From Ferroacidibacillus organovorans (lineage in GTDB: Bacteria; Bacillota; Bacilli; Alicyclobacillales; SLC66), in contig NZ_LSUQ01000023.1 in NCBI RefSeq assembly GCF_001642725.1, forward strand, positions 1-38,641: a stretch of DNA of 38,641 nucleotides, in the 5' to 3' direction. Below the pieces are notes generated by a model that was given only the letters and a program-made list of their open reading frames with translations, did not search any database and was not told where the DNA came from. Below, piece by piece: positions 1-30,811 of the stretch. Numbering within the stretch: the stretch's first letter is position 1; every line of letters begins with the position of its first letter. The position numbers and the translations under genes are program-made.

Positions 1-2214
1 GAGCGGGCGCAACGTGTTGTTTGCCAAGATCATGTGCCCCGCTTCAAGCGCGAGATCCGCGCTCGCGCCCATCGCGACGCCGAGATTCGCTTCGACGAGC
101 GCCGGAGCGTCATTTATGCCATCTCCGACAAAACACACCTGTGTCCCCTCTTTTTTAAGTGCAGCAACGAGTCGCGCCTTATCGAGCGGCGTCTGTCGCG
201 CGTACCACTGCGTGATCCCTAATTGATCCGCGATGTGCGCCACCGCTTGTGGATGATCTCCACTTGCCAGCAAAATTTTGCACCCATCTCGTTTGAGGGT
301 TTCGATGACAGCGCGCGCCTCAGGTCGAATCTCACTTCCAAACGAGAGGATGGCCTTCACGTCATCATCAATGATGACGTAAGAAACCGTACTGCCCGCG
401 GCAGACCATGTTTGACACGTTTTCTGAAAACGTTGTGACACAGGGCACGCGAGGGGTGTGGCGCCAACTTTTACAGAGTGCCCCCGTACGGTCGCGTGAA
501 CCCCCCACCCGCCCACTTCGCAAAACGAAGCTACCGGGTGCAATTCGCACGCCTGATCATGTGCAAAGCGAAGGAGTGCGTCGGCGATTGGGTGTTGTGT
601 GGGGTACTCTGCGGACGCGGCCAAATTGAGCCAGGATGCAGTCGGCCTGTTCCCAGACGAACCCTCTGCCTTTTGCAAATCGACGTCGTCCGTGCACTGA
701 TAGGCCGTGACTGTCACTCGCCCAGTCGTCAGCGTTCCCGTTTTGTCAAAAAGAACAGCGGAGACTTTTTTCGCGCGCTCCATCGCGTCTTGACTGCGCA
801 GGAGAACACCGTGCTTCGCCAAGGCCTGCGCCCCGCTGAGCAACGCCACAGGCGTTGCGATACTCAGCGCGCATGGGCAACCGATGACCAATACTGAAAT
901 GGCGCGCAACCACGCGCTCGCGAGTGGGAGATGCGCGACGAAGAACCCGTAGACAAACGTAATCACGCCAAGCGTGAGTACCGCCGGAACAAAAATCACG
1001 ACAATGCGCTGCGCCAGATGGTTCCATGTTGACGTGGACGCCTGAGCGCGCCGCACGTAGTCGGCCGATTGGGAAAGCAGCGTCTCTTTGGCGCGCACCA
1101 CTTCGACGATCACGTCTGCGCCGTAGTGTGTCGTCCCCGCGTAAAGCAGATCGCGCACCCCTTTACTCACGCGTGTTCCTTCTCCCGTGAGTATCGCCTC
1201 ATCCACATCGCTCGCGCCGGAGACGATGCGCCCATCAACAGGAATAATCTCGCCTGAGCGGATGAGAACATGGTCATGCTCGCACACGCGCTCAACTGCG
1301 ATCCATTCTTCACGCATCCCCTGTTTGCGGCGCGCCTCGGTCGGCAGAATCTTTTGGACCATCTGTAAAACCGTCAGTGCGCGCTGTTTCGCCCCTGCCT
1401 CAAGGACGCGGCTCAGGAGAAGAAACGTAATCAATAACCCTGCGGTGTCAAAATAAAGGTAATCACCATTTAAGCGCAAACTGACGCAACTGTAGACAAA
1501 CGCAGACAAGCTCCCGATACTGACAAGCAGATCCATCGTGGGAACACCACGCGAAACGCTCGTCCACGCTCCGCGCAAAAACGGCCATCCGCTATAAAAA
1601 ATGGTAGGGATCGCAAGCGCAAGCAACCCGTACGATAGCGTCAACGCGAGAGGCTTTGAAAAAAGCGGGAGATCCCCTGACCAGACGGGAATACTCAGCA
1701 TCATCATGAAAAAGGTGAGAACAAGGGCAAGTGCAAGCCGTTTTCGCAAATCGAGCACGTTCAACGCATCCGCCTCATCTGCAATCACTCGCTGCAAGAC
1801 CGGATAGCCGAGCTTCTTTATCTCCGACGCAATCGTCGTGTCATCCAGGCGCTCTGCATCGTACATCACCTCCGCGAGCGATTGCACGTAGTCTGTTTTT
1901 ACAGAGAGGATCCCTTCGCGACGGCTCAACACATGCTGAATCAGTGTGCAGCACGATGGACAGAAAACGCCAGAGAGGGACAATCTTACAGTCTGCGGCG
2001 ATCCAGCGGATGACAAGGAACCAGACTCTTTGCGAACAGGCAGTTGGCTCAAAACATCAAAGCGAAAGCCTGGCTCACGCTTTAGACGCTCCACCTCTTT
2101 GGCGCCGAGCAATTCAAAGAGTTGCAGGCAAGCATGGCAACAAAACACACGCTTATCGCGGGGAATCGGTCGCACGATGGGCTGCTCACACAAGTCACAC
2201 GTTAGAATAGCCAT
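1..2214 (-). CDS. Heavy-metal (Cu) translocating P1B-type ATPase, CcoI/FixI-like; 3' end runs off the window
   Basis: Not in the ORF track because there is no stop in the window. Manual minus-strand translation from ATG 2214: MAILTCDLCEQPI...VFCCHAC (N-terminal Cys cluster of CcoI type), HMA motif GVFCPSCC, LTGE, VIGCPCAL, FDKTGTLT, VGDGINDAPA. Confidence 0.93.
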   Translation of the reverse strand, partial: MAILTCDLCEQPIVRPIPRDKRVFCCHACLQLFELLGAKEVERLKREPGFRFDVLSQLPVRKESGSLSSAGSPQTVRLSLSGVFCPSCCTLIQHVLSRREGILSVKTDYVQSLAEVMYDAERLDDTTIASEIKKLGYPVLQRVIADEADALNVLDLRKRLALALVLTFFMMMLSIPVWSGDLPLFSKPLALTLSYGLLALAIPTIFYSGWPFLRGAWTSVSRGVPTMDLLVSIGSLSAFVYSCVSLRLNGDYLYFDTAGLLITFLLLSRVLEAGAKQRALTVLQMVQKILPTEARRKQGMREEWIAVERVCEHDHVLIRSGEIIPVDGRIVSGASDVDEAILTGEGTRVSKGVRDLLYAGTTHYGADVIVEVVRAKETLLSQSADYVRRAQASTSTWNHLAQRIVVIFVPAVLTLGVITFVYGFFVAHLPLASAWLRAISVLVIGCPCALSIATPVALLSGAQALAKHGVLLRSQDAMERAKKVSAVLFDKTGTLTTGRVTVTAYQCTDDVDLQKAEGSSGNRPTASWLNLAASAEYPTQHPIADALLRFAHDQACELHPVASFCEVGGWGVHATVRGHSVKVGATPLACPVSQRFQKTCQTWSAAGSTVSYVIIDDDVKAILSFGSEIRPEARAVIETLKRDGCKILLASGDHPQAVAHIADQLGITQWYARQTPLDKARLVAALKKEGTQVCFVGDGINDAPALVEANLGVAMGASADLALEAGHMILANNTLRPL

Positions 2215-2945
2215 GCATTCACACTCGGGATCCAGTGATTCATCGCAAGTCCCCTCAAAATAAACAGAATGCCACTGCACGTCATCACGGTGGCGGACAC
2301 GTTCGCAAAAATTCTTCCCTGCAAGCGCTTCTTCCCGTACCAACCGATGATGGCAACCGCAAGAAGCGAGGGAACCGTCCCCAATCCAAACGCGAGCAAG
2401 CTGAGCCCGCCTGCGAGAGCAGAACCGGTCGCTGACGCGGCCAATAACAACGCAAACATAAGCCCGCAGGGGTGCAAACCGAGCAGCGTGCCGGAGAAAA
2501 AGGCGTAGCCTGCTGAGGTTCTCTGCATTCCTTCTCGCAGCACACGCTGAATCGGCTTCCACGAGAGGATGGACCAGCGCTCAATGAACCCACCACCGTG
2601 CCCCGTGCGAAACTCGTCCACTGCCCAACCGATCATGAGAATTCCCCCCACAAGCCCTGAGATCGCTTCGATTCCCGTCGCGCTGCGAAGGGTGTTTAAA
2701 AAGGATCCCATCTCCCCAAACACTGCGCCAAGACACATAAAAGCGGTCACACGTCCCAGATTGTGCAGCAACTGACTTTTTAGAAACGCGACCAAAATAA
2801 AATGTGGTGAAGCGCCTTGCTCCGCTTTGACGCGCGCTCCTAAGCTGTATGCGAGAACGAACGGCCCGCACATTCCCGAACAGTGGAGAAACCCCTGAAT
2901 AAACCCGATCAAAAGCGCCCCACTCATCAGCATATAAAGCTGCAT
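2202..2945 (-). CDS. DsbD_2 / TauE-SafE-like membrane protein, probable oxidase Cu/thiol maturation factor
   Basis: HCSGMCGP and LHPCGL motifs, about 6-7 TM helices, GGAGG RBS, overlaps the ATPase start. Confidence 0.85.
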   Translation of the reverse strand: MQLYMLMSGALLIGFIQGFLHCSGMCGPFVLAYSLGARVKAEQGASPHFILVAFLKSQLLHNLGRVTAFMCLGAVFGEMGSFLNTLRSATGIEAISGLVGGILMIGWAVDEFRTGHGGGFIERWSILSWKPIQRVLREGMQRTSAGYAFFSGTLLGLHPCGLMFALLLAASATGSALAGGLSLLAFGLGTVPSLLAVAIIGWYGKKRLQGRIFANVSATVMTCSGILFILRGLAMNHWIPSVNAWLF

Positions 2946-2973
2946 GTAAACCCACCTCCGCCTACCGCACGGT

Positions 2974-3558
2974 TTACCAACTGCTACTCGCCAGAATGTT
3001 TGTTAGCATCATAAAAACCAGCACCGTTTGAAAAAGCAACGCAAGCCACAAACGATTCGGGAGCAGTATGCTCCACGCGCTACCCGTGAGAAATCCCGTG
3101 AGAACGAGTGAGAGATTCGCTTCGACAAAAAGCCAGATGTGTCCATCAAGAAACGCATTGAGTGTCGGAAGTGTCCACAAGGGCACCGGGAGCATGCCTA
3201 AAAAGACAATGCAGGCGGCGATAGAGCGCAGGAGTTCCTTACGCTTTGTTTCTGCCGTTTTAGGCAGCAACGTGCGCAGCAGCGTCTCTCCGACACGACG
3301 CGTGGAAATCGGTAACGACAGACCCACGATGACACCGCAAAGTGCGAGTGCAAAATAGACAATCGCGTGAGGTAAGACCACCGCGCGGCGGTCTGCTTGC
3401 GTGATCAGAAAATCCACTTGGCGCGATACGGCTGCGATAAAGATCATCAGCGCGATCGTGCGCCACATGAGAATCGTCTTTGACCTCACCCAGTCAAACG
3501 AGGTTGTGATGGATAGCGCGCGCTTAGGAATGGACTTCGATGGAATCGCTTTGCTCAT
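2974..3558 (-). CDS. Hypothetical membrane protein (about 5 TM)
   Basis: Hydrophobic ORF inside the operon. ATG at 3558 follows a GAGGTG RBS; the ORF track start is 3567. Confidence 0.65.
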   Translation of the reverse strand: MSKAIPSKSIPKRALSITTSFDWVRSKTILMWRTIALMIFIAAVSRQVDFLITQADRRAVVLPHAIVYFALALCGVIVGLSLPISTRRVGETLLRTLLPKTAETKRKELLRSIAACIVFLGMLPVPLWTLPTLNAFLDGHIWLFVEANLSLVLTGFLTGSAWSILLPNRLWLALLFQTVLVFMMLTNILASSSW

Positions 3559-3943
3559 AGAGGGCACCTCTTATCGCGAGTAAAAAATGGATCGTCCACC
3601 TTCCCCGCATCGTAAATAGCACATCTCCTTCATAGCGTTCGGGTGCGACCGGACGCATCACAGCTTCCACCGCCGGCATGCTCATGCCTAGCATCGTTGC
3701 TCTCACGCGCACCGATTGAATCTGCGTACGACGCATCTCCGACGGCAGTCGTACGCTGATCCGCACGCGCACCCATCTCAACTCGTAAAGTTTTGCAGGA
3801 AAACGGAGCAGTGTGACGCGGATTCCCTCTTTTTGAGCAGGGACGGCACTGGGGAGCGCATCCTGGAAATTTCCACAACCGAGCAAACCGCTCATCACGA
3901 GGGCGATGGAAAGGATCGACTGAAGCTTTACATCCCTCATCAT
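3524..3943 (-). CDS. YtkA/FixH-like lipoprotein (Cu delivery to oxidase)
   Basis: Lipobox LLGC. Motifs TMLGMSMP and YEGDVLFTMRGRWTI are typical of YtkA-like domains. Confidence 0.8.
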   Translation of the reverse strand: MMRDVKLQSILSIALVMSGLLGCGNFQDALPSAVPAQKEGIRVTLLRFPAKLYELRWVRVRISVRLPSEMRRTQIQSVRVRATMLGMSMPAVEAVMRPVAPERYEGDVLFTMRGRWTIHFLLAIRGALYEQSDSIEVHS

Positions 3944-4006
3944 CTCCCGGCATCGCTCCCACAAATCTGGTTAGACAGTCAACAAATTGCTTAGCTGGAA
4001 CTTCAT

Positions 4007-4037
4007 GCATACCTTTTACGTTTGCAGATCATATTAT
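4007..4037 (+). promoter_or_regulatory. Putative sporulation sigma (sigG/sigE-type) promoter for the cupredoxin-cox operon
   Basis: GCATA-N18-CATATTAT matches the B. subtilis sigG consensus (GnATA-N17/18-CATnnTA). Confidence 0.4.
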
Positions 4038-4075
4038 CCCTAAACCAGATCGAAAGAGGTGAGATTCTCAAAGAG

Positions 4076-4606
4076 ATGAAAACGAAATCAAGATGGATGA
4101 TCGGCGCGATGACAAGCGCGCTGTTGCTGACAGGTTGTGATGCGCAAATTCAGAGCAACCCGTCATCTTTGATGGTGACAGACGCTGCGACACAGACCGT
4201 CAATCTTTTTCTCTCAATGGCGCGGCACAGCGAAAACCTCTCTGCCAATTTTAACGGCTATGCAAACGGCCAACTGGTCATTACCGTACCTGTCGGATAC
4301 ACCGTGGCGCTTCACGTGACGAATGACGGAGGAATCCCATATGACATAGGCGTTTACGATGCGGCACAGCACGTCGCCTTTGCCGGATCTGCGCTCTCCA
4401 TCTCCGATTTGGAGAACAATCCCACGGCAGGCATCATGCCAGGCAACTCGCAGACCCTTCGCTTTGTCGCGAATCGCGTCGGCAATTTCCGTTTAGAAAA
4501 CATGCTGTATCGCTACCCAACCCACGCCCCAACCCATGAACCGCTTGGCATGTGGGCACAGTTTCGCGTGGTCTCGTCAGGCGTGCCGAGTGTTCAAGTT
4601 GAGTAA
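4076..4606 (+). CDS. Sulfocyanin (SoxE)-like cupredoxin-fold lipoprotein lacking the type-1 Cu cysteine
   Basis: Lipobox LLTGC, sulfocyanin signature NFNGYANGQLVITVPVG, C-terminal GMW. The only Cys is the lipobox Cys. Confidence 0.8.
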   Translation: MKTKSRWMIGAMTSALLLTGCDAQIQSNPSSLMVTDAATQTVNLFLSMARHSENLSANFNGYANGQLVITVPVGYTVALHVTNDGGIPYDIGVYDAAQHVAFAGSALSISDLENNPTAGIMPGNSQTLRFVANRVGNFRLENMLYRYPTHAPTHEPLGMWAQFRVVSSGVPSVQVE

Positions 4607-4667
4607 GGGGTTTTGACGTACGTGAGGATGATCGATAGGACGATTGAAAAGTTCGGAGGGTTTACGT

Positions 4668-5300
4668 ATGCAGGAGGATTCTTCACTGCGACGAGTTGAT
4701 CCATCAAGACGCGACCCACACTGGAGCGCAACCACGTTTTTTGTCGTTCTCGGTTTGGTCGTCTTGATCAGTATCCTCTCGCTTTTTTTGAAACGGCCCA
4801 TAAGTGATGCGACCGCCGCGATGACAGGCACAACGCTAAATGAGCCAGTCACGCAGATTGAGCAATATGACTATGGTTTCGAACCACACCACATCACGTG
4901 GCGGGCAGGTGACCAGGTAACCATCTCACTTCACAACCGCAGCACAACACACTGGCATGAGATGATGCTCGGCCGCGGCTACGACTATACGCCTTCCGCA
5001 TTTGGTCCGATCGCAACACAGTTTGACACTGATTTTTGGAACGGCATCCATGTCACGTTCAGCGGTGCAAACCATGTTGACAACTTGTGTGTCAACAAAG
5101 CGATCGCTAAATTTATCGGCCCGATGCCAAACATCGTGACGGGCGGGAATTTTAGTCCAACACTGCAACCAGGCGGCAGTCTCAACATGACATTTACAGT
5201 GCCGAATAAACCGGGGACATGGCACTACGGGTGCTTCGTGCAACAGTACGTGCATTACATGGCAGGGATGCGGGGAACCATTACCATTTTGCCAAGGTGA
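4668..5300 (+). CDS. Membrane-anchored cupredoxin, AcoP (Cup)-like
   Basis: N-terminal TM helix. Type-1 Cu ligands in HWHEMMLG and FTVPNKPGTWHYGCFVQQYVHYMAGMRG, closely resembling remembered Acidithiobacillus AcoP. GGAGG RBS before ATG 4668. Confidence 0.85.
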   Translation: MQEDSSLRRVDPSRRDPHWSATTFFVVLGLVVLISILSLFLKRPISDATAAMTGTTLNEPVTQIEQYDYGFEPHHITWRAGDQVTISLHNRSTTHWHEMMLGRGYDYTPSAFGPIATQFDTDFWNGIHVTFSGANHVDNLCVNKAIAKFIGPMPNIVTGGNFSPTLQPGGSLNMTFTVPNKPGTWHYGCFVQQYVHYMAGMRGTITILPR

Positions 5301-5348
5301 AGATTCGGCAACGCATTACCGTTTCATGTACATGAAAGAGAAGTAGGG

Positions 5349-6146
5349 GTGAACATGATCGATATTCTACTGTTTGCATTCTTTTGGCTGATCGCAACGC
5401 TCCTTGGTGAGTGGGGGGTTCACGCCATGGAGGCGCGCGGGTTGTATTATAGCGCAGCCACATCGCAGGCGCTCGATGGCGAAAAAGCGGTTGCTTTCAT
5501 CCTGACGATGCTCGTTCCGGTCATCGCGTTTGTCGTGGTGATGTTGATCTACACGGCGATCCGATTTCGTTCGCGAAAATCACTTCAGTTTCGCGACAAC
5601 AAAGTGTTTATCGGCATCTGGGTTTTGTTCAGTATCGCGCTAAATATTCTATTCTTTGTGCACCCTTCTGCTTCAGCGCTAGAACAGATGTTTAACAATG
5701 AAGAGGCTCGTTTGAATCGTCACGATCTGATTGTCAATGTCACGGCACGCCAGTGGGAGTGGATCTTCAGCTATCCGCAATACGGAATTCAAACCGCTGA
5801 AGACAGCAACGGCAACAGCACACTGTATTTGCCAGTCAACCAAAATGTGCGTTTTGTTTTACGTTCCTATGACCCATACCACACGTATGATCCGAATGGG
5901 GCTGTGATACACGATTTCTGGATTCCGGCATTCGGGCTAAAGCAAGACATCATTCCGGGAGAAACGCGTCTCGAGTACGTTCACACGAACAAGATCACAT
6001 CGTACGACGTCGATCCGATGGTTCGGGTGCAATGCGCGGAAGTATGCGGTCCAGGCCATCCCTTCATGGAGGCGCCAGTGCATGTCGTTTCCTCCTCCGA
6101 TTTTATGAAGTGGGTACAAGCTCAGCGCAAACTCGAAGCATCCTGA
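5349..6146 (+). CDS. coxB: Cytochrome c oxidase subunit II (CuA), no fused cytochrome c
   Basis: ARQWEWIFSYP, VIHDFWIP and the CuA motif CAEVCGPGHPFM. Confidence 0.95.
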   Translation: MNMIDILLFAFFWLIATLLGEWGVHAMEARGLYYSAATSQALDGEKAVAFILTMLVPVIAFVVVMLIYTAIRFRSRKSLQFRDNKVFIGIWVLFSIALNILFFVHPSASALEQMFNNEEARLNRHDLIVNVTARQWEWIFSYPQYGIQTAEDSNGNSTLYLPVNQNVRFVLRSYDPYHTYDPNGAVIHDFWIPAFGLKQDIIPGETRLEYVHTNKITSYDVDPMVRVQCAEVCGPGHPFMEAPVHVVSSSDFMKWVQAQRKLEAS

Positions 6147-6200
6147 TGATTCATAGAAAGATTCATCAGGAACAATTCCCCTAAATAAAGGAGCATTTGG

Positions 6201-8069
6201 ATGAGCGCTAATGCTGCGGGACTAAGCGGTGTGGATACCGCAAACCGCCAAAGACGGCGAATAGCTCCGCCTGTTATTCGCGGACTGTTATGGGCTGCCA
6301 TCGGATTTCTCGTCTTTAATACGCTGGTGAGCCAAGTCATTGATCGACAACCGTATGACCCATTTGTCACGCGCGTCTCCGCAACAGTCGGATGGGCTGC
6401 CGCAGTCATTGGCTGGTTGCTTGGCGTCGGTGCGTGGGAAGTGATTGTTCGCCCCTTTTTCGGCCACCCTGTAGAGTGGGACATCCCGAATGATTGGCGC
6501 CGCTACTTCATGTTCAGCACAGATCACAAAGTGGTTGGTCTTCAATACATTTTCACGACCACGGGGAGTTTTCTTCTGGCTGGATTGGCTGCCATGATGA
6601 TGCGGATGGAATTGATGAACGCAAAACTGTGGGTTTTCACAAATCCGGGCGCTTATCTGACAACCGTCGGCATTCACGGCACCGTCATGATGTTTTCTGT
6701 CGGAACGGTCGCATTGGTCGGAGGTTTCGCAAACTATTTCATTCCGCTAATGATGGGTTCTAACTCATCCGCCTATCCGCGCATGTCAGGACTCAGCCAC
6801 TGGCTGCTTCCGGCAGGTATCGCCACTGTATTTCTCAGTCCACTGCTCGGACAGTGGACAACCGGTTGGCGCGCTTATGCGCCATTGTCAGGGCAAGATC
6901 CGTCAGGGATCGTGTTTTACTATCTTGGAGTGTTTGCGATGACCACGTCATCCCTGCTCGTGGCGATCAATCTGACCGCGACCATCATCTTCAATCGTGC
7001 GCCCGGACTCACCTGGAATCGGCTACCGATGTTTGGGTGGGGAATTCTCGCGGTTAGTCTGCTCACCATTATTTGGGTGCCTGAGATTCAAATGACGTTT
7101 ATCATTTCTCTCCTCAACTTGATCGTACCCTTTTCACTTTTTGAGCAAACCGGCTCACCGCTCACCTATATGGAGTCGTTTTGGCTTTTCGGTCACCCGG
7201 AGGTATACATCATCGTCGTTCCAGCATTCGCGCTGTGGCAGGAGATCATCCCTGTCATGGGTCAAAAAACGTTGTTTGCAAGACAGTGGGGCGTGCTCGG
7301 CCTCGTGTTTGTCATGCTGTTCAGCGGTCTGGTTTGGGCGCATCACATGTTTACAAACATGCGCAACAGCGAGATGCTTCCGTTTTCCTTTTTTACAGAG
7401 ATGATCTCGATTCCGACTGGTTTCTCTTATCTGGTCGTACTCGGCACGCTGTGGGGGGCAAGACTAAAGTTCAGTACGCCTACTCTTTTCGTGCTGATGA
7501 GCATGTTCAATTTTCTCATCGGGGGGATCACGGGCGTTCTCTTGGCCGACCCTGTCATCAATCTGCAAACACACGACACCTTTTTTGTCTTATCTCACTT
7601 TCACTACACCGTGATTGGCTCTATGGTCTTCACGTGGCTCGCTGCAGCCTATTACTGGCTCCCTAAATTGTCCGGGCGCATGTACAACGAAACCCTAGGT
7701 AAATTGGGCGCAATCTGGGTATTTATCGCATTCAACTCAGCGTTTGGACAAATGTTCTTCGTTGGACTTCGCGGCATGAATCGCTGGGTTGCAGTCTACC
7801 CACAGTATCTACAAAACATGAATTTTTCAATTTCCATGTTTGCCTTTTTACTGGGATTGGGATTCCTGTTTAACTTTGTGCATATCACATGGATGTGGAA
7901 TAAAGGGAAGCCAGTTGGGCAAAATCCGTGGAATGGCAAAACTTTAGAGTGGTTTGGCACACCAAAACCTGGGATTGCCACGTTCAGCCCACTTCCGCAC
8001 GTTGAGACAGGCTTTTACGATTACAGCGAAAACACGCCACCAACACCATCACCGCCAAAAAGGATGTGA
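6201..8069 (+). CDS. coxA: Heme-copper oxidase subunit I, A1 type, with N-terminal 2-TM extension
   Basis: TDHK, IHG, WLFGHPEVY, WAHHMF and SHFHY motifs; 622 aa. Confidence 0.97.
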   Translation: MSANAAGLSGVDTANRQRRRIAPPVIRGLLWAAIGFLVFNTLVSQVIDRQPYDPFVTRVSATVGWAAAVIGWLLGVGAWEVIVRPFFGHPVEWDIPNDWRRYFMFSTDHKVVGLQYIFTTTGSFLLAGLAAMMMRMELMNAKLWVFTNPGAYLTTVGIHGTVMMFSVGTVALVGGFANYFIPLMMGSNSSAYPRMSGLSHWLLPAGIATVFLSPLLGQWTTGWRAYAPLSGQDPSGIVFYYLGVFAMTTSSLLVAINLTATIIFNRAPGLTWNRLPMFGWGILAVSLLTIIWVPEIQMTFIISLLNLIVPFSLFEQTGSPLTYMESFWLFGHPEVYIIVVPAFALWQEIIPVMGQKTLFARQWGVLGLVFVMLFSGLVWAHHMFTNMRNSEMLPFSFFTEMISIPTGFSYLVVLGTLWGARLKFSTPTLFVLMSMFNFLIGGITGVLLADPVINLQTHDTFFVLSHFHYTVIGSMVFTWLAAAYYWLPKLSGRMYNETLGKLGAIWVFIAFNSAFGQMFFVGLRGMNRWVAVYPQYLQNMNFSISMFAFLLGLGFLFNFVHITWMWNKGKPVGQNPWNGKTLEWFGTPKPGIATFSPLPHVETGFYDYSENTPPTPSPPKRM

Positions 8070-8656
8070 TCAAAATGTCCAGTCATAACACCTACACAAA
8101 AACCTCATTACGGATAGGGCCACTGTCCGAGCGCGATTTGAGGAAAAATCGCTTCGGTATGAGCTTATATTGCATTTCGCAAGCGGTACCCTACTTCTTG
8201 CTTATCAATATTCGCTTTGTGATTGCCGGGAATTTCGTACCTGTCGGCCTGAATCTGTGGTTGGGAGGAATCATTCCGACCGTCGCGCTACTCGTCGGAA
8301 TCATCCCGCTTTTCACCGCGCGCGCTGCATTGCAAAAAGACGACATTCCACGCGTTCGCAGCCATGTCATGACTGCGATGCTTCTTGGCTTGATCGGTCT
8401 GCTCAGCCTGCTGTTCCCACTCTGGTTTCACAATTTTGATGCGCTGAGCCCATTTGGAGAGATTGATCTGATCTCACTCGGTGTCGCCAGCTTCTACACC
8501 ATAATTGCTCTGATCGTCGCCTGGGGCGTCTATCTTCGTCTCGGTAAAGGGCTCATCCGAAAAGAGACCGGTTGGGGCATCGAAGCGACCATTTGGGTCT
8601 ATGCGTTTAATGCGATCGCCTGGACTGCGCTTTTCTTCACGCTCGATCTCTTGTAA
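8066..8656 (+). CDS. coxC: Cytochrome c oxidase subunit III (short, 5 TM)
   Basis: Follows coxA with overlap, hydrophobic 5-TM pattern, resembles the short Acidithiobacillus CoxC. Alternative ATG at 8075. Confidence 0.8.
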   Translation: MIKMSSHNTYTKTSLRIGPLSERDLRKNRFGMSLYCISQAVPYFLLINIRFVIAGNFVPVGLNLWLGGIIPTVALLVGIIPLFTARAALQKDDIPRVRSHVMTAMLLGLIGLLSLLFPLWFHNFDALSPFGEIDLISLGVASFYTIIALIVAWGVYLRLGKGLIRKETGWGIEATIWVYAFNAIAWTALFFTLDLL

Positions 8657-8708
8657 GGCGTATCCGCTCCTCTCCGTACAATCGAGCACCTAAGGAGTGA
8701 ATTTATTT

Positions 8709-8903
8709 ATGAGATGGCCAACCGCCCCCTTTTATATTCCGTACAGCCCAGGTATGCCGGACTGGTGGGATCTTGTTTGGTGGGTCTTTCAACTCGGCAT
8801 CATGTCCTTGCTGCTCTGGTTTTTAGCAACCGTAGCGATGCGAGTCGATCGCGACTTTGTCAAGACTGGGCAGTCGCACGATCTGCAAGACGACGATGTT
8901 TAA
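8709..8903 (+). CDS. Small single-TM protein, probable oxidase subunit IV (CoxD-like)
   Basis: 64-aa ORF with AAGGAG RBS directly after coxC and one TM helix. Assignment rests on position and size only. Confidence 0.6.
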   Translation: MRWPTAPFYIPYSPGMPDWWDLVWWVFQLGIMSLLLWFLATVAMRVDRDFVKTGQSHDLQDDDV

Positions 8904-8918
8904 GGAGGTTCAGGAACG

Positions 8919-9413
8919 ATGAGACCCTTGCGATTTCGCCTGCATAGAAGAATAAACGCCTTCGCGGTTTTAACCTTCACCTTGATCTCTTGCTCCGGGT
9001 TTGCCTTTGTACGCGATCGCGAACCTGACAAGAGTCATGTGCACATCAATGATTCAAACGCTCTGCAAAACGCCACCGTCAAAAAAACTGCATTTCACCC
9101 ACGCCTTGATCTAGGAAAAGCGATCACTGCACAGATTCCAAACGTCTCATTTGCCACTGTACTCCAACGTAAAGATGACCTTTACGTTGGAATCGCAACG
9201 AGGGATGGTAAAAATCTCACACCATTGTTAGAGCATCAAATTATGACAACCGTTCAATCCGCGGTTCCATCCGCACAGCATATTTTGATCAGTACAGACA
9301 AGACGCTGGTGAACCACTTCCAGATCTTTTCAAGCTCTTTTAAAAACGGGAGCACATCTGGAAGCGATCTGATCATCAGCGATGTTGAGCGGGTGTTCCC
9401 ACAACTAAAATGA
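8919..9413 (+). CDS. YhcN/YlaJ-family spore lipoprotein
   Basis: AAGGAGG RBS, lipobox LISC, pattern IPNVSFATVL...LYVGI...ILISTD...VERVFP. Confidence 0.75.
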   Translation: MRPLRFRLHRRINAFAVLTFTLISCSGFAFVRDREPDKSHVHINDSNALQNATVKKTAFHPRLDLGKAITAQIPNVSFATVLQRKDDLYVGIATRDGKNLTPLLEHQIMTTVQSAVPSAQHILISTDKTLVNHFQIFSSSFKNGSTSGSDLIISDVERVFPQLK

Positions 9414-9425
9414 ACGTTTCAAGGA

Positions 9426-9797
9426 TTACGTCTCCAAATGGAACGATTTAGGAAGCACGACGCGATGCAGGCCCTCTTCAAACAACGCAAGCACGATCGC
9501 GATAGCTTCTGCGACATAAAAAGGGACGATGGTAAAATTGCTCATTCCTAAAGAAAGAAGCGAAATGACCAATAGGAACGCCATTTTATCAACATAAAGC
9601 GTCGGAAAACTCCCGATGCGCGGCAAGACGACCCAGTCCAGGATGAGCCCTACCGCCGCGACGGCCAACGACGTGAGAGCCAAATCCCAGTAGCTGTCAT
9701 AAAGCGTAAAGATGCGATCAGCAATTGTGATCACCAGTAGGCTGAGGACAAACTTCGCGATAAAGTCAAAAACGGGACGTCGGAGTGGCTCGTTCAT
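9426..9797 (-). CDS. DUF2512 (YndM-like) 4-TM membrane protein
   Basis: AAGGAGG RBS; pattern KFV...DWVVLPRIG...D...FEEGLHRVV. Confidence 0.7.
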   Translation of the reverse strand: MNEPLRRPVFDFIAKFVLSLLVITIADRIFTLYDSYWDLALTSLAVAAVGLILDWVVLPRIGSFPTLYVDKMAFLLVISLLSLGMSNFTIVPFYVAEAIAIVLALFEEGLHRVVLPKSFHLET

Positions 9798-9941
9798 TCT
9801 CATTCCTCCTTTTGATTTTGTACGTCATTATGTCCGCAAATGAGTTGGGCAATACTCCCCCAAAATTGGATGAAAAGGCGAATAGGCCAAACAAGATGCG
9901 GCATATTCTCTGAGGAATTTCCATCTGGGGAGTGACAGGCC

Positions 9942-10568
9942 ATGCCTTGGTTCTTGTTAGGATTAGCGATCTTGCTCGGGGTTCGACACGCATCAGCACC
10001 CGATCACGTGATGGCGGTTACAACCTATGTCGAGCAAAATCACGCATCTGCGCGATCAGGAATTGGTTATGCGCTTCGCATTGGCCTTGGCCACAGCATC
10101 GGAATGATCATCATGGGCATCGCTGTCCTCTTTTTATTACACCACCTCCCTGGAACGTGGGGAACATTATTAAGCAGAGTGTCAGGTCTGTGGATTCTGC
10201 TTTTCTCAGGTCTGATCCTTGCGAATCTCTGGTGGGGGAAAGAACACTCAACCCTTCGCAACCGCGTGAGCCAGTGGGTCGGCTCGCGCTCATCGGCTTG
10301 GATTCTCGGAATCCTTCTCGGCCTGGCCGTGGCGCCGGGAGACTTGGCAATTTTCGGCTTGATGACCACACTCCCGAATCAAGTCGACGGCGCTTTGTTA
10401 CTTTTTAGTTTTTTGTTGGCCATGCTGACTTCTCTCTCAATTCTTGGCGCCAGTCTGGAATTTTTCCATAAATTAGGACGCGCGCAGTGGCACCGTTGGA
10501 CGACAAATGGGGTTGGCGTGCTTGGAATGGGTGTTGGCCTCGCGCTTTTATCAGGGATTCTTCACTAG
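9942..10568 (+). CDS. Ni/Co transporter (NiCoT/UreH-like)
   Basis: RHASAPDH and GLGHS motifs, about 6 TM helices. Confidence 0.8.
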   Translation: MPWFLLGLAILLGVRHASAPDHVMAVTTYVEQNHASARSGIGYALRIGLGHSIGMIIMGIAVLFLLHHLPGTWGTLLSRVSGLWILLFSGLILANLWWGKEHSTLRNRVSQWVGSRSSAWILGILLGLAVAPGDLAIFGLMTTLPNQVDGALLLFSFLLAMLTSLSILGASLEFFHKLGRAQWHRWTTNGVGVLGMGVGLALLSGILH

Positions 10569-16242: not shown

Positions 16243-17548
16243 GATCTGACAACTCCTTTCCCAACTTTTTAAGATCAAGCACGCGAAACATCTGAATACA
16301 GAATAACAGAATGGCAAAAGCCGTAAGGGTCGCACCAAAAACGGTAAGCGGCAGCCACATACTGATCTCTCCAGCCGTAAGCGTGACGACGCCGAGCGCA
16401 AATCCGATAAACACGGGTCGCGACGTACTCACATTGACAATATCGGCGATAACAGGCGCCTTGCCTGGCCCTTTATGATGGCTATAGCGTTTGCTCCAAA
16501 TCAAAAAGGGTACGATTTTATACGCAAATCCCATCATCGTCATGGTCACCCACCCTAGCAGATAAAGCGTTACGACACTTTTCCAAGACACTTGTCTGCC
16601 ACCCGTAACAGAAGCGACAGAGAACAGGCCAATCGCGAGAAGACCCGCCGCTAACGCATAGAATACGGCATGAATCGGCGCCTCAACCTTTTTTCTCATT
16701 CTGTGCCTGACCATGTCTTTAAGCGACACAGCCTGTAACACAATGACACACACCCCTGCCACTAACCCGAACCATGTGAACAGGGCCATGGAGCTCCAGA
16801 TGCCAAGGAGCAAAAAGAGCATTGCGCTATGCGCGAGAATCAGTGTCCACCTGTGCCACTTCGTTTGATACCCGTGAGCAAGCGTAAACATCGGCAACAA
16901 TTTATAGCTAAACCCGATGAGCAAGAAAGAGAAAAAACCGACTGCAGCCAGAAGAATGTGCGTTGCAATCAGTTGATTCATCCATGGTGAGAGGGCGTTC
17001 ATCGCACCTGAATCGACAGATAAGAGCACAATCGCTAGCGTTATCGCGAGAATGAGATAAACATGCGCAGACACGACGAAACCCCACATCACATCTTTCA
17101 CCTTGACCTGCGTGAGGGATCGGAGCATGACGATTGCATAGATGAAGAGTGCCACCACAGCCAGCCCGCCAAAAAGCAAAAATCCCGACGCCCACCACAA
17201 GCTCATCGAGATAAAAAGACCGATCAATGAGAGCGAATACAGCCAAAAATTAAAGCGTGCCAATGGAACATTCGCAATCGGAATCAGGAAAGCGACCGTT
17301 GCCAACTGATAAACTGCGCCCATGACAAAGGAAAGAAGGGAGCCAAGCGTAAGCATGTGCGTGAGCGCAACCAATGCAGGCGCCCCAGGATCGCCACTCG
17401 CAAGATGATGGGACTGAAAAGCGAGATCCATCGCAAAGATTCCGAAGCATACGATTCCAAACGTCATATAGCGAATGGGAACCGCAAAAGGTGGCGATTG
17501 GCTTACCATTCCCCCGCGACCCTTCGAGTGAATCGACGCTTGTTGCAT
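16235..17548 (-). CDS. 12-TM membrane protein of the NnrS/heme-copper-oxidase-subunit-I-like superfamily usually linked to DUF2249/DUF59
   Basis: Repeated helices THMLTLG...GAVYQL, THILL..G...GFSYKLLPMF and GFAYKIVPFLIW; strong AAGGAGG RBS. Confidence 0.7.
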   Translation of the reverse strand: MQQASIHSKGRGGMVSQSPPFAVPIRYMTFGIVCFGIFAMDLAFQSHHLASGDPGAPALVALTHMLTLGSLLSFVMGAVYQLATVAFLIPIANVPLARFNFWLYSLSLIGLFISMSLWWASGFLLFGGLAVVALFIYAIVMLRSLTQVKVKDVMWGFVVSAHVYLILAITLAIVLLSVDSGAMNALSPWMNQLIATHILLAAVGFFSFLLIGFSYKLLPMFTLAHGYQTKWHRWTLILAHSAMLFLLLGIWSSMALFTWFGLVAGVCVIVLQAVSLKDMVRHRMRKKVEAPIHAVFYALAAGLLAIGLFSVASVTGGRQVSWKSVVTLYLLGWVTMTMMGFAYKIVPFLIWSKRYSHHKGPGKAPVIADIVNVSTSRPVFIGFALGVVTLTAGEISMWLPLTVFGATLTAFAILLFCIQMFRVLDLKKLGKELSDHD

Positions 17549-17560
17549 ACAGAATCCTCC

Positions 17561-18040
17561 TTACGCCTCGTCGAGTGAACGAGAGATGCGGACACACACC
17601 GTTCCGTCAGGATCTTCGCGCACATCATGCGAGAAACCTGCGTCGTCAAGCTCTGGTAAGAGGAATGCGGGAACACGCTCATTCCAGATTTCAAGTCCTA
17701 ATACGCCGTCTTTTATCTCTGATTGATGTTCAAGGATTTCCAGTGTCCGCACCATCGGTTGGGGCGGTTGAAGCCCCCGATTGTCCAAGTGAAAATACGG
17801 GAGTTCCTCTGCTGACTTGTAAAAATCAACGACGTAGTGATCCGCTTCAAGCTGTACCACTGCGTGACGAAATCCGCGTTTTGCAAGAACATTTAAAAGT
17901 GGGTCTGGTTTAAATGTCGCGTGGAGTTGAAGTACATCCCCTACATCCAGTTCGGAGATCGCCGTCATGATGCGTTGGAACGGTTCTTCTTTCGCCCGAA
18001 GCATTTCGCGCACATCAAGATCAATCAGTCGCCTCGTCAT
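17561..18040 (-). CDS. Tandem DUF2249 (SirA/TusA-like) domain protein
   Basis: LDVR...EPFQRIM...TFKPDPL and LDNRGLQPPQPM motifs; AGGAGG RBS. Confidence 0.85.
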   Translation of the reverse strand: MTRRLIDLDVREMLRAKEEPFQRIMTAISELDVGDVLQLHATFKPDPLLNVLAKRGFRHAVVQLEADHYVVDFYKSAEELPYFHLDNRGLQPPQPMVRTLEILEHQSEIKDGVLGLEIWNERVPAFLLPELDDAGFSHDVREDPDGTVCVRISRSLDEA

Positions 18041-18145
18041 TTTGCAGCCTCCTCCTGTTTCACTTCATTCACTAATGCCAACACGGTTATTTTCTCAAAA
18101 AACGATTCTTAAGGTTGTGCGCTGCGTCACGCTCACAACGTGTGA

Positions 18146-18829
18146 TCAGAGATACAGATCAGATCGCCACATTTTGTGGAGCGGTTCAATGGTCATCTGC
18201 GTATCTGGATGGAACTGATTGATAATTTGTCTCAGCCTCGCCTCGTCAACCGTGTGACCGAACTGGCTGCGGTGGGCGCTTGTAGCCAAACACTTTCGCT
18301 CAAACACACTCGTGATATCCACATAATAATTAGGTTCATCACAGTTGAAGAGATAGAGTTCCTGACTGCGGTGGCATACCACATCACCCGTGATCTGCTG
18401 CCTATAATACCAACAGTTCGCGCCTAAGTGTGCCGCCTCAATCATGGCAAACCCGATCGTACGGTGATCCGAGTGAATCTCATAACGCTTCCAAGGGTCA
18501 AACGTGAGAACAAGATCAGGCCGTATTCTTCGAACAAGGTGAAACAAGGTCTCCTTCAAATCGTTTGCGTATTGCAGTTCTCCGTCTTGATACCCCAATT
18601 GAATCACTTCACGAATGCCCAAGCGTTTCGCCGCAACCTCCATCTCTTGGCGTCTCATCTCGGCAATCGCGGGTGGAGATAGCGCAGGATCGTGGCTCCC
18701 TTTTTCCCCTTGCGTCCCAACGACCAGATACACGTCATTCCCCAGATCTGTCAATTTTAGAATCGTCCCCGAACAAAACACTTCATCATCGGGATGCGCC
18801 ACACATACCAGTACCTTTTTACCATTCAA
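18146..18829 (-). CDS. PIG-L/LmbE-family deacetylase (BshB-like)
   Basis: AHPDDE, TQGEKG, HSDH and HRSQ motifs. Confidence 0.92.
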   Translation of the reverse strand: MNGKKVLVCVAHPDDEVFCSGTILKLTDLGNDVYLVVGTQGEKGSHDPALSPPAIAEMRRQEMEVAAKRLGIREVIQLGYQDGELQYANDLKETLFHLVRRIRPDLVLTFDPWKRYEIHSDHRTIGFAMIEAAHLGANCWYYRQQITGDVVCHRSQELYLFNCDEPNYYVDITSVFERKCLATSAHRSQFGHTVDEARLRQIINQFHPDTQMTIEPLHKMWRSDLYL

Positions 18830-28213: not shown

Positions 28214-28228
28214 CTTCCACCCTCTTCT

Positions 28229-30780: not shown

Positions 30781-30811
30781 ACTATTTCTGCAATCCAATT
30801 GCAATTTTGAA

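Follow-up and report, generated by a model that had tools for sequence, protein, structure and literature searches.

In Acidithiobacillus ferrooxidans the genes of the rus operon follow the order cyc2-cyc1-acoP/cup-coxB-coxA-coxC-coxD-rus. The cupredoxin AcoP binds and supports the oxidase of this organism, and it was first described as a tightly bound partner that keeps oxidase activity optimal at physiological pH (PMC4059628). AcoP homologues are also present within the cox clusters of Sulfobacillus (PMC4059628), and a '2TM acidophilic Firmicutes' class of COX1, Acidibacillus included, has been defined (PMC8239418 supplement). Sulfocyanin-oxidase clusters have been proposed as candidates for Fe(II) oxidation (PMC6315122, PMC9387220). 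Most of the picture is already in print (PMC4059628, PMC8239418, PMC6315122, PMC10654088), and this kind of cluster has been described in acidophilic iron oxidisers.

The window analysed here is a stretch of 38,641 nucleotides from Ferroacidibacillus organovorans (contig NZ_LSUQ01000023.1). The first-pass annotation had listed a lipoprotein gene, an acoP-like gene, coxB, coxA, coxC and a small coxD-like gene in that order, and all six forward-strand open reading frames were found in place, with intergenic distances of -4 to 54 nt. A seventh gene follows.

Gene 1, 4076..4606, forward strand: 176-aa cupredoxin-fold lipoprotein related to the N-terminal part of the SoxE family, without type-1 copper ligands ('pseudo-sulfocyanin').
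Gene 2, 4668..5300, forward strand: membrane-anchored AcoP-family cupredoxin of 210 aa; the open reading frame opens with TTG at 4644.
coxB, 5349..6146, forward strand: oxidase subunit II; it has a CuA site and lacks a haem c domain.
coxA, 6201..8069, forward strand: A-family haem-copper oxidase subunit I of 622 aa with two extra N-terminal helices.
coxC, 8066..8656, forward strand: short oxidase subunit III of 196 aa.
Gene 6, 8697..8903, forward strand: one-helix membrane protein of 68 aa (64 aa from the fifth codon) at the coxD/subunit IV position.
Gene 7, 8919..9413, forward strand: lipoprotein of the YhcN/YlaJ family (Pfam PF09580, 2.6e-10).

The start of gene 2 is likely the ATG at 4668, which comes after a GGAGGG motif and gives the 210-aa product. 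Gene 7 starts 15 nt past gene 6 and holds the same position and strand in nine loci (L010-L014, L016-L019), all from the CoxA subclade of the window; it is probably a seventh member of the operon in this subclade. A DsbD_2-type membrane protein is encoded near the cluster, here and in five related loci. The genome holds a second intact copy of the cluster and a third copy that is broken by an IS element.

The likeness to the acoP-coxBAC core of the rus operon was borne out, as the AcoP-like protein, CoxB, CoxA and CoxC are homologous to those of two proteobacterial MAG loci, L062 and L064, where Cyc2-like and dihaem Cyc1-like genes are present as well. Both loci show the acoP-coxB-coxA-coxC order, and identities to L062 are 33% for AcoP, 35% for CoxB and 44% for CoxA. 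The ligands of CuA and AcoP are alike in the two systems. In contrast to the rus operon, the Cyc2 porin-cytochrome and the dihaem Cyc1 are missing here, which is expected because the organism has no outer membrane. Rusticyanin-like genes lie on another contig and not in the operon, a SoxE-fold lipoprotein gene stands in front of the cluster and the YhcN/YlaJ lipoprotein gene behind it. CoxC as a single sequence gave no Pfam match, but a 16-row profile matched the Rhodobacter subunit III (1m56_C, E=3.9e-20) and the 184-aa ORF that follows coxA in L062 (hhalign probability 97.5%). The last small gene differs. Gene 6 follows coxC in 48 of 52 Firmicute loci (the remaining four are truncated) and has a conserved IPYSPGMP.WWD motif; it has no Pfam match, its atlas record, which starts at the fifth codon, scores no more than 0.83, at noise level, and no homology to the 63-aa ORF of L062 was detectable (hhalign probability 4%). 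The label 'coxD-like' could thus not be upheld, and the name CoxD refers to position only.

Compared with the Bacillus caa3 (CtaCDEF) and aa3-600 (QoxABCD) oxidases, the cluster shares membership of the A family, four subunits and the lipoprotein biology of Firmicutes. The product of coxB (COX2 1.5e-9; TIGR02866 1.4e-32) carries the CuA motif CAEVCGPGHPFM and no CxxCH, and so, unlike Bacillus caa3 and as was claimed from the sequence at first, it has no fused cytochrome c. Twenty-two rows, three of them proteobacterial, show no variation at H188, C229, C233, H237 and M240, nor in RVQC, part of a motif named in the first-pass annotation. An intact CuA implies that the electron donor is a one-electron carrier, soluble or tethered, rather than quinol. 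CoxA matches COX1 (3.7e-104) from residue 112 onwards; the two transmembrane segments claimed in front of it are seen as hydrophobic stretches at residues 21-47 and 59-83, and the extension motif named in the first-pass annotation appears as GW.LG.G.W(E/D/Q) in L062, L064, L067 and L065. Alignments to solved oxidases show that the Glu and Tyr of GHPEVY and all six His ligands are kept. In both trees CoxA groups with the AcoP-linked CoxA of proteobacteria, outside CtaD and QoxB (100/100 support), and it scores 416-483 bits to AcoP-linked CoxA of other phyla as against 252 to B. subtilis QoxB and 273 to Thermus caa3. Reciprocal monophyly separates the Firmicute copies from the proteobacterial ones, and identity between the two groups is only 33-44%, which means that any transfer between them would be ancient.

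Three lines of evidence make a single module of the AcoP-like protein and the oxidase: the order AcoP-like, CoxB, CoxA, CoxC and small gene, which is kept in 48 of 52 Firmicute loci (truncation accounts for the other four); the AcoP tree, whose subclades match those of the CoxA tree; and the five genomes of the order without AcoP that were examined, where the nearest CoxA was only 32-36% identical. Module and order are shared with the AcoP-homologue cox clusters of Sulfobacillus (29 Sulfobacillus-type loci; group II homologues in PMC4059628; Sulth_0449-0453 in PMC6315122), and the COX1 of Acidibacillus, with two extra transmembrane segments and a modified K-channel (PMC8239418 supplement), is the same type of protein. 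The S. thermotolerans copies are 59-61% identical in CoxA and 42-44% in AcoP. Among the named carriers are known iron oxidisers: A. ferrooxydans, A. tolerans, Sulfoacidibacillus thermotolerans and Sulfobacillus spp.

Gene 2 encodes a true AcoP-family cupredoxin. It aligns with solved AcoP (PDB 7Z3B, E=7.3e-17) across the ligand loop, the motif VPNKPG.W.YGCF of the first-pass annotation also falls in register with that structure, and the best seven Foldseek matches are all AcoP chains (TMt 0.76-0.79). The product is 91% identical to an AcoP-like protein of F. organovorans and has a single hydrophobic helix at residues 25-54, an N-terminal anchor. The loop reads C197-x6-H204-x4-M209, with H105 as the fourth ligand; all four residues are invariant in 37 diverse rows, and the x6/x4 spacing occurs in 99 of 110 AcoP-like proteins among the matches listed. 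Strict conservation of the type-1 ligand set favours a redox-active copper. It is quite unlikely, in our judgement, that the protein is a partner that protects or stabilises the oxidase at acid pH, or a copper buffer, with CuA being fed directly by Fe(II) or by rusticyanin-like proteins. Such a role would agree with the original description of AcoP in terms of tight binding and maintenance of activity (PMC4059628), with the title of one paper in the reference list of PMC6803676, which ties copper resistance to AcoP and rusticyanin, and with the rusticyanin-like proteins with intact ligands that this genome encodes. Against it stand the invariant ligands and their spacing, and also four AcoP-positive genomes in which cytochrome c domains and rusticyanin-like genes are both missing, so that the AcoP-like protein is the only candidate carrier found there.

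Gene 1 had been taken for a sulfocyanin-like lipoprotein that feeds copper-borne electrons to the oxidase. The fold part of this claim stood: the AF2 model (pLDDT 77.5) is a beta-sandwich, and Foldseek matched the cupredoxin domains of Cu-nitrite reductase, CuA and multicopper oxidase with probability 1.0. Like the SoxE sulfocyanin of Sulfolobus/Ferroplasma-type oxidase complexes, it is a cupredoxin encoded beside an oxidase; it matches the N-terminal half of SoxE (Pfam 6e-8, residues 53-112 only) and keeps the C-terminal GMW, and it is a lipoprotein (lipobox LLTGC), as is the intact sulfocyanin of the Sulfobacillus locus L106. Its score against TIGR03094 is 32.5 bits, below the equivalog cut-off of 168.4. 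The copper ligands, however, are missing. Cys21 of the lipobox is the sole Cys, and when the ligand columns were scored against an intact Sulfobacillus sulfocyanin, Cys was kept in 0, the first His in 2, the second His in 9 and Met in 23 of the 26 family rows. With the copper Cys lost in 26/26 rows, gene 1 is unable to act as a blue-copper electron feeder, and a type-1 copper electron carrier was ruled out. It would most likely serve the complex as an accessory, either structural or in assembly. A more specific role, in which gene 1 would be a copper chaperone or a metal-binding factor in the assembly of CuA or the AcoP-like protein, with Met, His, Asp or Asn as ligands, is possible but doubtful. 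The GMW Met is widely kept, every row has N, D or S in the lost-Cys column, two His occur in the loop of the window copy, the lipoprotein faces the same side of the membrane as CuA, and the DsbD_2-type protein is close by; but the loop His residues are unconserved, the loop is weakly modelled (block pLDDT 59-62), and the gene is present in only 2 of 29 Sulfobacillus-type loci as compared to 23 of 23 loci of the Ferroacidibacillus/Alicyclobacillales subclade.

None of the six proteins contains CxxCH, as had been claimed, and the only CxxCH in the window ORFs of at least 60 aa lies in a 75-aa frame near 26794. Cytochrome c is also undetectable in the genome (96.8% complete), in which it was sought by two Pfam families and a CxxCH scan, the 87 matches of the scan judged by eye only: there were no PF00034 and no PF13442 matches at E<=0.1. 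No ResB was found, and the sole CcsA-family gene is read as HemX because it sits between hemA and hemC/hemD. By comparison, genes for cytochrome c maturation are present in Sulfobacillus (PMC6315122 Table 1) but missing in this genome, and a small lipoprotein ORF with one CxxCH (mono-CxxCH) lies near 11 Sulfobacillus-type loci but not here. Nine of the 16 AcoP-positive genomes of the order gave no PF00034 match, among them the four mentioned above. The other seven have cytochrome c domains and, together with the mono-CxxCH loci, make cytochrome c input possible in relatives. Two anchored rusticyanin-like proteins with an intact Cys-x4-His-x4-Met loop are encoded on contig C28, and such a gene is present in 9/16 AcoP-positive and 4/37 AcoP-negative genomes. 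The C28 genes lie 2-4 kb from a Cu-ATPase-like gene, so the proteins could serve copper handling instead. In this organism a small copper protein, and not cytochrome c, probably supplies the oxidase with electrons.

The link of the cluster to Fe(II) is plausible but unproven. Whole-cell spectra of Sulfobacillus and A. ferrooxydans reduced with Fe(II) are dominated by a-type cytochromes (PMC5143472), and Sulth_0449-0453 is highly transcribed, with still higher levels where no other iron oxidiser accompanies Sulfobacillus (PMC6315122 Table 1). A. mengziensis S30H14, for which the species description states that it 'did not oxidize' Fe(II) (assay at pH 4.0, PMC9558579), keeps two complete clusters (L012, L025), and this counts against the link. 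The cluster could instead serve general respiration at the acid face during heterotrophic growth, with the AcoP-like cupredoxin in the place of cytochrome c, as the link from a membrane complex that oxidises quinol to the terminal oxidase. The sulfocyanin of archaeal SoxM-type chains offers a parallel. The candidate quinol oxidiser would be one of two cytochrome b6-like genes (contigs C5 and C10), each with a membrane partner of ~340-360 aa. Relatives of the organism are obligate heterotrophs (PMC4888994), and the retention of two clusters in the reported non-oxidiser also agrees with this. However, neither contig has a Rieske gene, which leaves no evident canonical bc complex; three QoxB-type quinol oxidases are already encoded in the genome; and the AcoP-like gene is missing in 37 of 53 genomes of the order and present in none of 16 in the largest genus, which is unexpected of a housekeeping role. 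The loss of both canonical proton channels, described below, would be wasteful, given the large driving force that quinol oxidation offers. We regard general respiration as unlikely.

We favour, at somewhat better than even confidence, an A-family aa3-type '2TM' terminal oxidase of acidophiles that has its own AcoP-like cupredoxin as donor to CuA, Fe(II) as electron source, poor or no proton pumping and gene 1 as an accessory. The oxidase would consist of CoxB with CuA, CoxA, the short CoxC and a small fourth subunit. On the outer, acidic side of the membrane, electrons would reach the AcoP-like cupredoxin one at a time from a donor of high potential. This donor would most likely be Fe(II), acting directly or through the pair of rusticyanin-like proteins of C28. 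A point against this step is that solved AcoP has a potential of about +566 mV at pH 5, which is below that of Fe(III)/Fe(II) at low pH. Electrons would then pass to CuA of CoxB, to haem a and to haem a3-CuB, where O2 would be reduced with cytoplasmic protons, and cytochrome c would play no part in the chain.

Unlike Bacillus CtaD and QoxB, and like the rus-type loci, CoxA has lost the canonical proton-channel residues. The entrance Asp of the D-channel is present in 0/50 Firmicute and 0/4 proteobacterial AcoP-linked rows (Glu takes its place in six of the 50), the Asn after it in 0/54 and the Lys of the K-channel in 0/55, as against retention of all three in 16/16 outgroup rows. Such losses suggest that the enzyme is probably a poorly pumping or non-pumping consumer of protons. 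A Thr-Glu pair, conserved eight residues upstream of where the Lys was lost, may be a substitute proton pathway, to judge from the alignment, and pumping may then be possible. Poor or absent pumping would suit the small driving force of Fe(II) oxidation.

The cluster at 4076-8903 consists of six tightly packed genes on the + strand, with intergenic gaps of -4 to 54 nt by the ORF calls. The genes are as follows.

Genes of the cluster
4076-4606, + strand: gene 1, SoxE-family lipoprotein of 176 aa with the lipobox LLTGC; Pfam SoxE match at 6e-8 over residues 53-112 (N-terminal part of the model)
ORF from 4644, likely start ATG 4668, + strand: gene 2, AcoP-like cupredoxin; a GGAGGG motif precedes the ATG
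5349-6146, + strand: coxB, 265 aa, with the CuA motif
6201-8069, + strand: coxA, 622 aa; COX1 match from residue 112
ORF after coxA, + strand: coxC, 196 aa; no Pfam match
ORF after coxC, + strand: gene 6, 68 aa; no Pfam match

A motif scan found CxxCH in none of the six proteins and nowhere in the neighbourhood of the cluster, and the 265-aa CoxB, itself free of CxxCH, lacks the C-terminal cytochrome c that is fused to the Bacillus caa3-type CtaC. Thus the first-pass annotation had described the gene set correctly as one devoid of CxxCH, with a CoxB that carries no cytochrome c. The promoter and terminator scan of 3400-10100 leaves the ends of the operon undefined, since the counts there (3 and 7 sites) were no better than those in shuffles (6.1 and 6.9 sites). 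The flanks (window 2202-3964 on the minus strand, and 9426-10568) code for a DsbD_2-type membrane protein, a TM protein, a YtkA-like lipoprotein, a DUF2512 protein and a NicO/DsbD_2-like protein. Of these, the genes for the DsbD_2-type protein and for the uncharacterised TM protein are also found 4.6-5.5 kb upstream of the cluster in the related loci L011-L015, and a DUF2512 gene lies downstream in convergent orientation in 5 loci. The YtkA-like upstream ORF (3524-3964; Pfam 0.0014, below cut-off) was considered as an assembly factor and this lead was dropped, because none of the 58 loci has a counterpart of it close to the cluster. It was also observed that the G+C content is 0.40-0.45 in window 28001-34000 as against about 0.50-0.57 in the rest of the window.

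The product of gene 2 is a true AcoP-family cupredoxin, as its sequence, ligand spacing, predicted fold, anchor and position all agree. Its Pfam cupredoxin matches are weak; phmmer against the PDB aligned residues 71-217 to residues 36-167 of AcoP 7Z3B (E=7.3e-17) with the ligand loop in register, and the next family was auracyanin-like at 2e-6. The copper ligands are H105 and the loop C197-x6-H204-x4-M209, and all four are invariant in an alignment of 37 diverse relatives. PMC4059628 singles out the x6 spacing between Cys and His as unprecedented and specific to AcoP. Among the matches listed, 99 of 110 AcoP-like proteins show the x6/x4 spacing, as do 57 of the 58 AcoP-like ORFs at related loci. 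When the AF2 model (pLDDT 79.7) was searched with Foldseek, the best 7 matches were all AcoP chains (E 6.7e-12 to 3.5e-10; TMt 0.76-0.79), followed by auracyanin at 6.6e-6, five orders of magnitude weaker. The N-terminal anchor is a single hydrophobic helix (residues 25-54). Further hallmarks of AcoP are a green copper site, a high redox potential and an affinity for cytochrome c and the oxidase; of these partners, cytochrome c is not detectable in the genome of the window. The gene directly preceding coxB codes for an AcoP-like protein at 51 of the 52 Firmicute loci (the 52nd is truncated) and at 5 proteobacterial loci. A F. organovorans protein shares 91% identity with that of the window, and other named relatives are those of Alicyclobacillus ferrooxydans, A. 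tolerans, Sulfoacidibacillus thermotolerans and Sulfobacillus thermosulfidooxidans.

A different picture emerges for gene 1, whose lipoprotein had been proposed as a cupredoxin feeding electrons to the oxidase. Its only Cys is that of the lipobox, and none of the 26 aligned members of the family carries a Cys beyond the lipobox column. The ligand columns were set on L106, an intact sulfocyanin from the complete S. thermotolerans genome (PHS, C-x4-H-x4-M). At the column of the copper Cys none of the 26 rows has Cys (N in 15, D in 10, S in 1), and the first His, second His and Met are found in 2, 9 and 23 rows, respectively; the window protein has Y, N, H and M at the His, Cys, His and Met columns. 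The match to Pfam SoxE (32.7 bits, cut-off 21) covers profile positions 8-66 of 149 only, and the NCBIfam equivalog TIGR03094 is matched at 32.5 bits, far under its cut-off of 168.4 bits. The AF2 model (pLDDT 77.5, low confidence at the would-be copper loop) gave Foldseek matches of probability 1.0 to domains of Cu-nitrite reductase, CuA and multicopper oxidases, and the modelled fold is that of a cupredoxin; phmmer against the PDB returned nothing at E<=10. Judged by its residues, which do not make up a type-1 copper ligand set, the protein is predicted not to be a working sulfocyanin, and with the copper Cys missing from all 26 rows its role as electron feeder could not be upheld. The same divide is seen within S. 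thermotolerans, where only one (L106) of three SoxE lipoproteins (L105, L106, L107) has the full type-1 ligand set; L105 has Ser for Cys and Asn for the first His, and the copy beside the AcoP-cox cluster is Cys-less. It should be noted here that a homologue of gene 1 is publicly annotated as 'sulfocyanin-like copper-binding protein', and that PMC6803676, PMC6315122 and PMC9387220 view sulfocyanin beside oxidases as a candidate for Fe(II) oxidation. A copy of gene 1 stands in front of the cluster at 25 Firmicute loci out of 52, namely at all 23 of the Alicyclobacillales type as against 2 of the 29 of the Sulfobacillus type.

The subunits of the oxidase were compared with those at related loci and in solved structures. 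An alignment of 22 CoxB rows, 3 of them proteobacterial, shows no change at any of the CuA ligands (H188, C229, C233, H237 and M240), and the RVQC motif is kept in it as well. The strict motif CxExCGxxHxxM is present in 52 of 57 CoxB ORFs, the 5 exceptions being proteobacterial with the ligands still present. A 16-row coxC profile matched subunit III of Rhodobacter (1m56_C, E=3.9e-20) over the C-terminal five-helix part, and it matched the ORF after coxA in the locus L062, a proteobacterial MAG comparator, with an hhalign probability of 97.5%; the 196-aa ORF is a short oxidase subunit III. Gene 6 codes for a conserved one-helix protein. Its profile showed no homology to the 63-aa ORF of L062 (hhalign probability 4%), and its scores in the protein atlas were at chance level (<=0.83). 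Therefore 'CoxD' is a positional name here: of the 'coxD-like' designation the position holds and homology to the proteobacterial small ORF is not supported.

CoxA has two extra N-terminal helices (hydrophobic segments 21-47 and 59-83), and the motif GW.LG.G.W(E/D/Q) of this extension is common to the AcoP-linked CoxA of Proteobacteria, of Acidihalobacter and of a Chloroflexi MAG. H332, H381, H382, H466, H468, Y336 and E334 are conserved in 50/50 Firmicute and 4/4 proteobacterial rows, and H159 lies within an HG motif; these positions correspond to the six ligand His, to the cross-linked Tyr and to the Glu of TM6. With two extra TM segments, GHPEVY (HPEVY, TM6) and a replaced Lys, the protein falls in the '2TM acidophilic' class of A-family COX1 as defined in the supplement of PMC8239418.

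In an alignment to solved oxidases, the window CoxA has G-S-N-S-S-A-Y-P-R-M-S opposite the conserved G-x-x-D-x-A-F-P-R-x-N, and PTG-F-S opposite PTG-(V/I)-K. The changed positions are presumably the Asp at the entrance of the D-channel, its first Asn and the Lys of the K-channel, and they are distributed as follows.

Canonical channel residues in CoxA
D-entrance Asp: AcoP-linked Firmicute rows 0/50 (Glu in 6); proteobacterial rows 0/4; Chloroflexi kept; outgroup 16/16
Following Asn: AcoP-linked Firmicute rows 0/50; proteobacterial rows 0/4; Chloroflexi kept; outgroup 16/16
K-channel Lys: AcoP-linked Firmicute rows 0/50; proteobacterial rows 0/4; Chloroflexi 0/1; outgroup 16/16

Where the K-channel Lys would stand, the window CoxA has Ser, and each of the 50 Firmicute rows has A, S or G; a Thr-Glu pair eight residues upstream of it is conserved in AcoP-linked rows only. 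Loss of the canonical residues of both channels is in keeping with the narrow energy margin of iron respiration and lends itself to direct measurement; that the oxidase of A. ferrooxidans is unable to pump has been argued on energetic grounds. In its supplement, PMC8239418 already lists both the altered K-channel and the 2-TM extension for 'Acidibacillus ferrooxidans', Sulfobacillus, Alicyclobacillus and the rus-operon oxidases, and for D-channel variants it refers to a 2020 paper. In a search of open papers, which did not extend to that 2020 paper, none was found that states the loss of the D-channel in this oxidase clade.

Related loci were collected with two peptide patterns from a 14-row AcoP alignment, with one genome per species, and this gave 63 loci; the diverse 37-row alignment has no stretch conserved enough for a genome scan. 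The set is non-exhaustive, being without the classical Acidithiobacillus AcoP and without at least one AcoP-positive genome of the Alicyclobacillales. Genes for the AcoP-like protein, CoxB, CoxA, CoxC and the small protein follow in the same order in 48 of the 52 Firmicute loci, and the other 4 are truncated at their ends. Outside Firmicutes, genes for AcoP-CoxB(-CoxA) are present at four loci from proteobacterial MAGs and at one from Acidihalobacter. In two of the MAG loci (L062 and L064), which served as comparators, a 507-531 aa ORF with one CxxCH and a 225-232 aa dihaem cytochrome c lie upstream of the AcoP-CoxB genes, which we take to be the layout of the rus operon. The window shares with the rus operon the core acoP-coxB-coxA-coxC and differs from it in that Cyc2 and the dihaem Cyc1 are absent upstream of acoP, no CxxCH being found in or near the cluster; a coxD homologue and an in-operon rusticyanin are likewise lacking, and the rusticyanin-like genes are on another contig, C28. 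Hence the view of the cluster as the core of that operon stands for acoP-coxBAC and is not supported for the homology of coxD.

The window CoxA matches AcoP-linked CoxA of other phyla at 416-483 bits and solved oxidases at <=288 bits (actinobacterial CtaD 288, Thermus caa3 273, B. subtilis QoxB 252). In five genomes of the same order without AcoP, the best match has only 32-36% identity. In a careful CoxA tree of 51 rows, which included 28 of the 48 Firmicute locus rows, all 35 AcoP-linked rows fall on one side of a single branch, with the CtaD-type and QoxB-type oxidases outside; a grouping of CoxA with ordinary CtaD or QoxB, which would have spoken against the first-pass annotation, is not seen. 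Firmicute and proteobacterial AcoP-linked CoxA are reciprocally monophyletic (support 100/100 and 100/99, respectively), so a recent transfer between the two phyla is not supported. The AcoP tree reproduces the CoxA subclades, which argues that cupredoxin and oxidase diverged together. At 11 Sulfobacillus-type loci (L030, L032, L036, L053, L054 and L056-L061) an ORF of 152-224 aa with one CxxCH and a signal or lipobox-like N-terminus lies on the minus strand, 0.7-2.1 kb downstream of the cluster. It resembles a small cytochrome c bound to the membrane; Alicyclobacillales-type loci have no such ORF.

The genome of the window carries related clusters on other contigs. A second intact six-gene cluster lies on C62 (C62:1572-6364, partly L004 and L088), and its products are 39% (gene 1), 43% (AcoP-like), 54% (CoxB), 67% (CoxA), 26% (CoxC) and 47% (small gene) identical to those of the window; the gene 1 product encoded there is Cys-less as well. 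Gene 1 is missing from a third AcoP-coxBACD cluster, which is divided between C27:102-3359 and C39:19960-23645. Transposase-like ORFs, taken to be IS3-like (orfAB) on C39 and IS110-like on C27, interrupt the coxA of this third cluster in the stretch from about residue 240 to residue 247, and the two contig ends overlap across the break by 70 identical bases. The AcoP of this cluster is closest to Sulfobacillus-type copies (57% identity), without a supported placement in the tree.

Cytochrome c was sought throughout this genome (3.03 Mb, 98 contigs, 96.8% complete). The domains PF00034 and PF13442 gave 0 matches each at E<=0.1, and ResB gave no match. The sole CcsA-family gene lies between hemA and hemC/hemD, and from this position it is read as HemX. 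A CxxCH scan returned 87 ORFs with one CxxCH each, none of them cytochrome-like as judged by eye alone. The absence of ResB was considered as evidence that cytochrome c is lacking and is uninformative alone, because ResB is found in 0/53 genomes of the order and cytochrome c domains in 23/53. AcoP is present in 16 of these 53 genomes. Cytochrome c domains are missing from 9 of the 16, spread over 6 genera, and in 4 of these 9, belonging to 2 genera, a rusticyanin-like gene is absent as well. In those 4 genomes the AcoP-like protein is the only candidate carrier found. The window genome itself has rusticyanin-like and cytochrome b6-like genes, as listed here.

Rusticyanin-like and cytochrome b6-like genes elsewhere in the genome
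C28:20557-21219 and C28:22858-23775: two rusticyanin-like proteins (L086, L087), each with an N-terminal anchor and an intact C-x4-H-x4-M loop
C5:84729-86425 and C10:874-2467: paralogous cytochrome b6-like pairs (L099, L100)

The rusticyanin-like proteins have Gly/Met-rich linkers and score 96-100 bits against the rusticyanin model (cut-off 146.7), and their genes lie 2-4 kb from a Cu-ATPase-like gene (16407-18623). Rusticyanin-like genes occur in 13 of the 53 genomes of the order, namely in 9 of 16 AcoP-positive as against 4 of 37 AcoP-negative genomes; this co-occurrence is only suggestive, since the relatives are not independent. Each of the two cytochrome b6-like genes (204-213 aa) is followed by a gene for a 341-361 aa membrane protein without a Pfam match, and a Rieske gene was not found on the same contig as either pair. 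A canonical bc complex able to feed the oxidase from quinol is not evident; the pairs resemble the non-canonical 'petB-like' operons of Sulfobacillus (PMC4378227). The genome also has three QoxB-type oxidases. As for other copper proteins, a 391-aa two-domain multicopper oxidase-like ORF at C28:4943-6118 (L009:1375-2550, minus strand) lies beside a sensor histidine kinase fragment and is possibly a copper-response gene. Two more small Cupredoxin_1-family genes are at C38:5348-5800 and C1:85197-85496, the former coding for a 150-aa protein with a Cys...His...Met C-terminal loop.

The route of Fe(II) oxidation in Gram-positive acidophiles is still unsettled in the field, and Firmicutes receive one mention in a 2026 protein-focused review (PMC13741234). 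Dissimilatory iron oxidation by Ferroacidibacillus and Sulfoacidibacillus has been described (PMC4888994, PMC11123200), and carriers of the module include A. ferrooxydans, A. tolerans and Sulfobacillus. The spectra of Fe(II)-reduced cells of Sulfobacillus and A. ferrooxydans are dominated by a-type cytochromes (PMC5143472). Table 1 of PMC6315122 gives high transcript levels for Sulth_0449-0451 and Sulth_0453, with an increase of 1.7-3.6 log2 units when Leptospirillum is absent; going by gene order only, Sulth_0453 would be the orthologue of gene 1. The module is absent from 37 of the 53 genomes of the order, including all 16 of the largest genus, and this counts for a link to Fe(II). Against the link counts A. 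mengziensis S30H14, which has two clusters (L012 and L025) and did not oxidise Fe(II) at pH 4.0 (PMC9558579). The most likely reading is that the cluster encodes an aa3 oxidase that would be fed by AcoP independently of cytochrome c and would serve a donor of high potential, probably Fe(II); gene 1 would be an accessory without a redox function. A bolder version is possible and, in our judgement, rather doubtful: in Gram-positive acidophiles free of cytochrome c, the AcoP-type green cupredoxin would couple Fe(II) to the oxidase as the sole entry to an aa3 enzyme that, with its two canonical proton channels lost, no longer pumps; the adjacent 'sulfocyanin' would be a pseudo-cupredoxin devoid of copper that acts as a structural subunit.

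Much of this outline is in print. PMC4059628 reports Sulfobacillus AcoP homologues within cytochrome oxidase clusters. According to PMC10654088, CoxA and CoxB of Acidithiobacillus lie close to those of Chloroflexi, Actinobacteria and Firmicutes, and its Rus and Cup group with Bacillales, Alicyclobacillus among them. PMC8239418 sets up the 2-TM COX1 class and counts Acidibacillus in it, and PMC9387220 records that a related strain has a sulfocyanin-like gene in one cluster with cytochromes. Three Acidibacillus genome announcements do not mention these genes, and the searchable literature yielded no account of copper-ligand loss in the oxidase-adjacent 'sulfocyanin', of the absence of cytochrome c from many carriers of the module or of a clade-wide loss of the D-entrance Asp/Asn. 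With the main outline already published, the gain lies in refinement and in a cleaner experimental system, and not in a new type of system. The locus is a compact and testable candidate, with one anchored cupredoxin and one oxidase in an organism without detectable cytochrome c. An oxidase-adjacent 'sulfocyanin' without copper ligands in every copy examined could alter the models of this respiration, and so could an oxidase clade stripped of the canonical D- and K-channel residues; if the bolder version is true, the published schemes of iron oxidation in Sulfobacillus and Alicyclobacillus that start at sulfocyanin would need revision.
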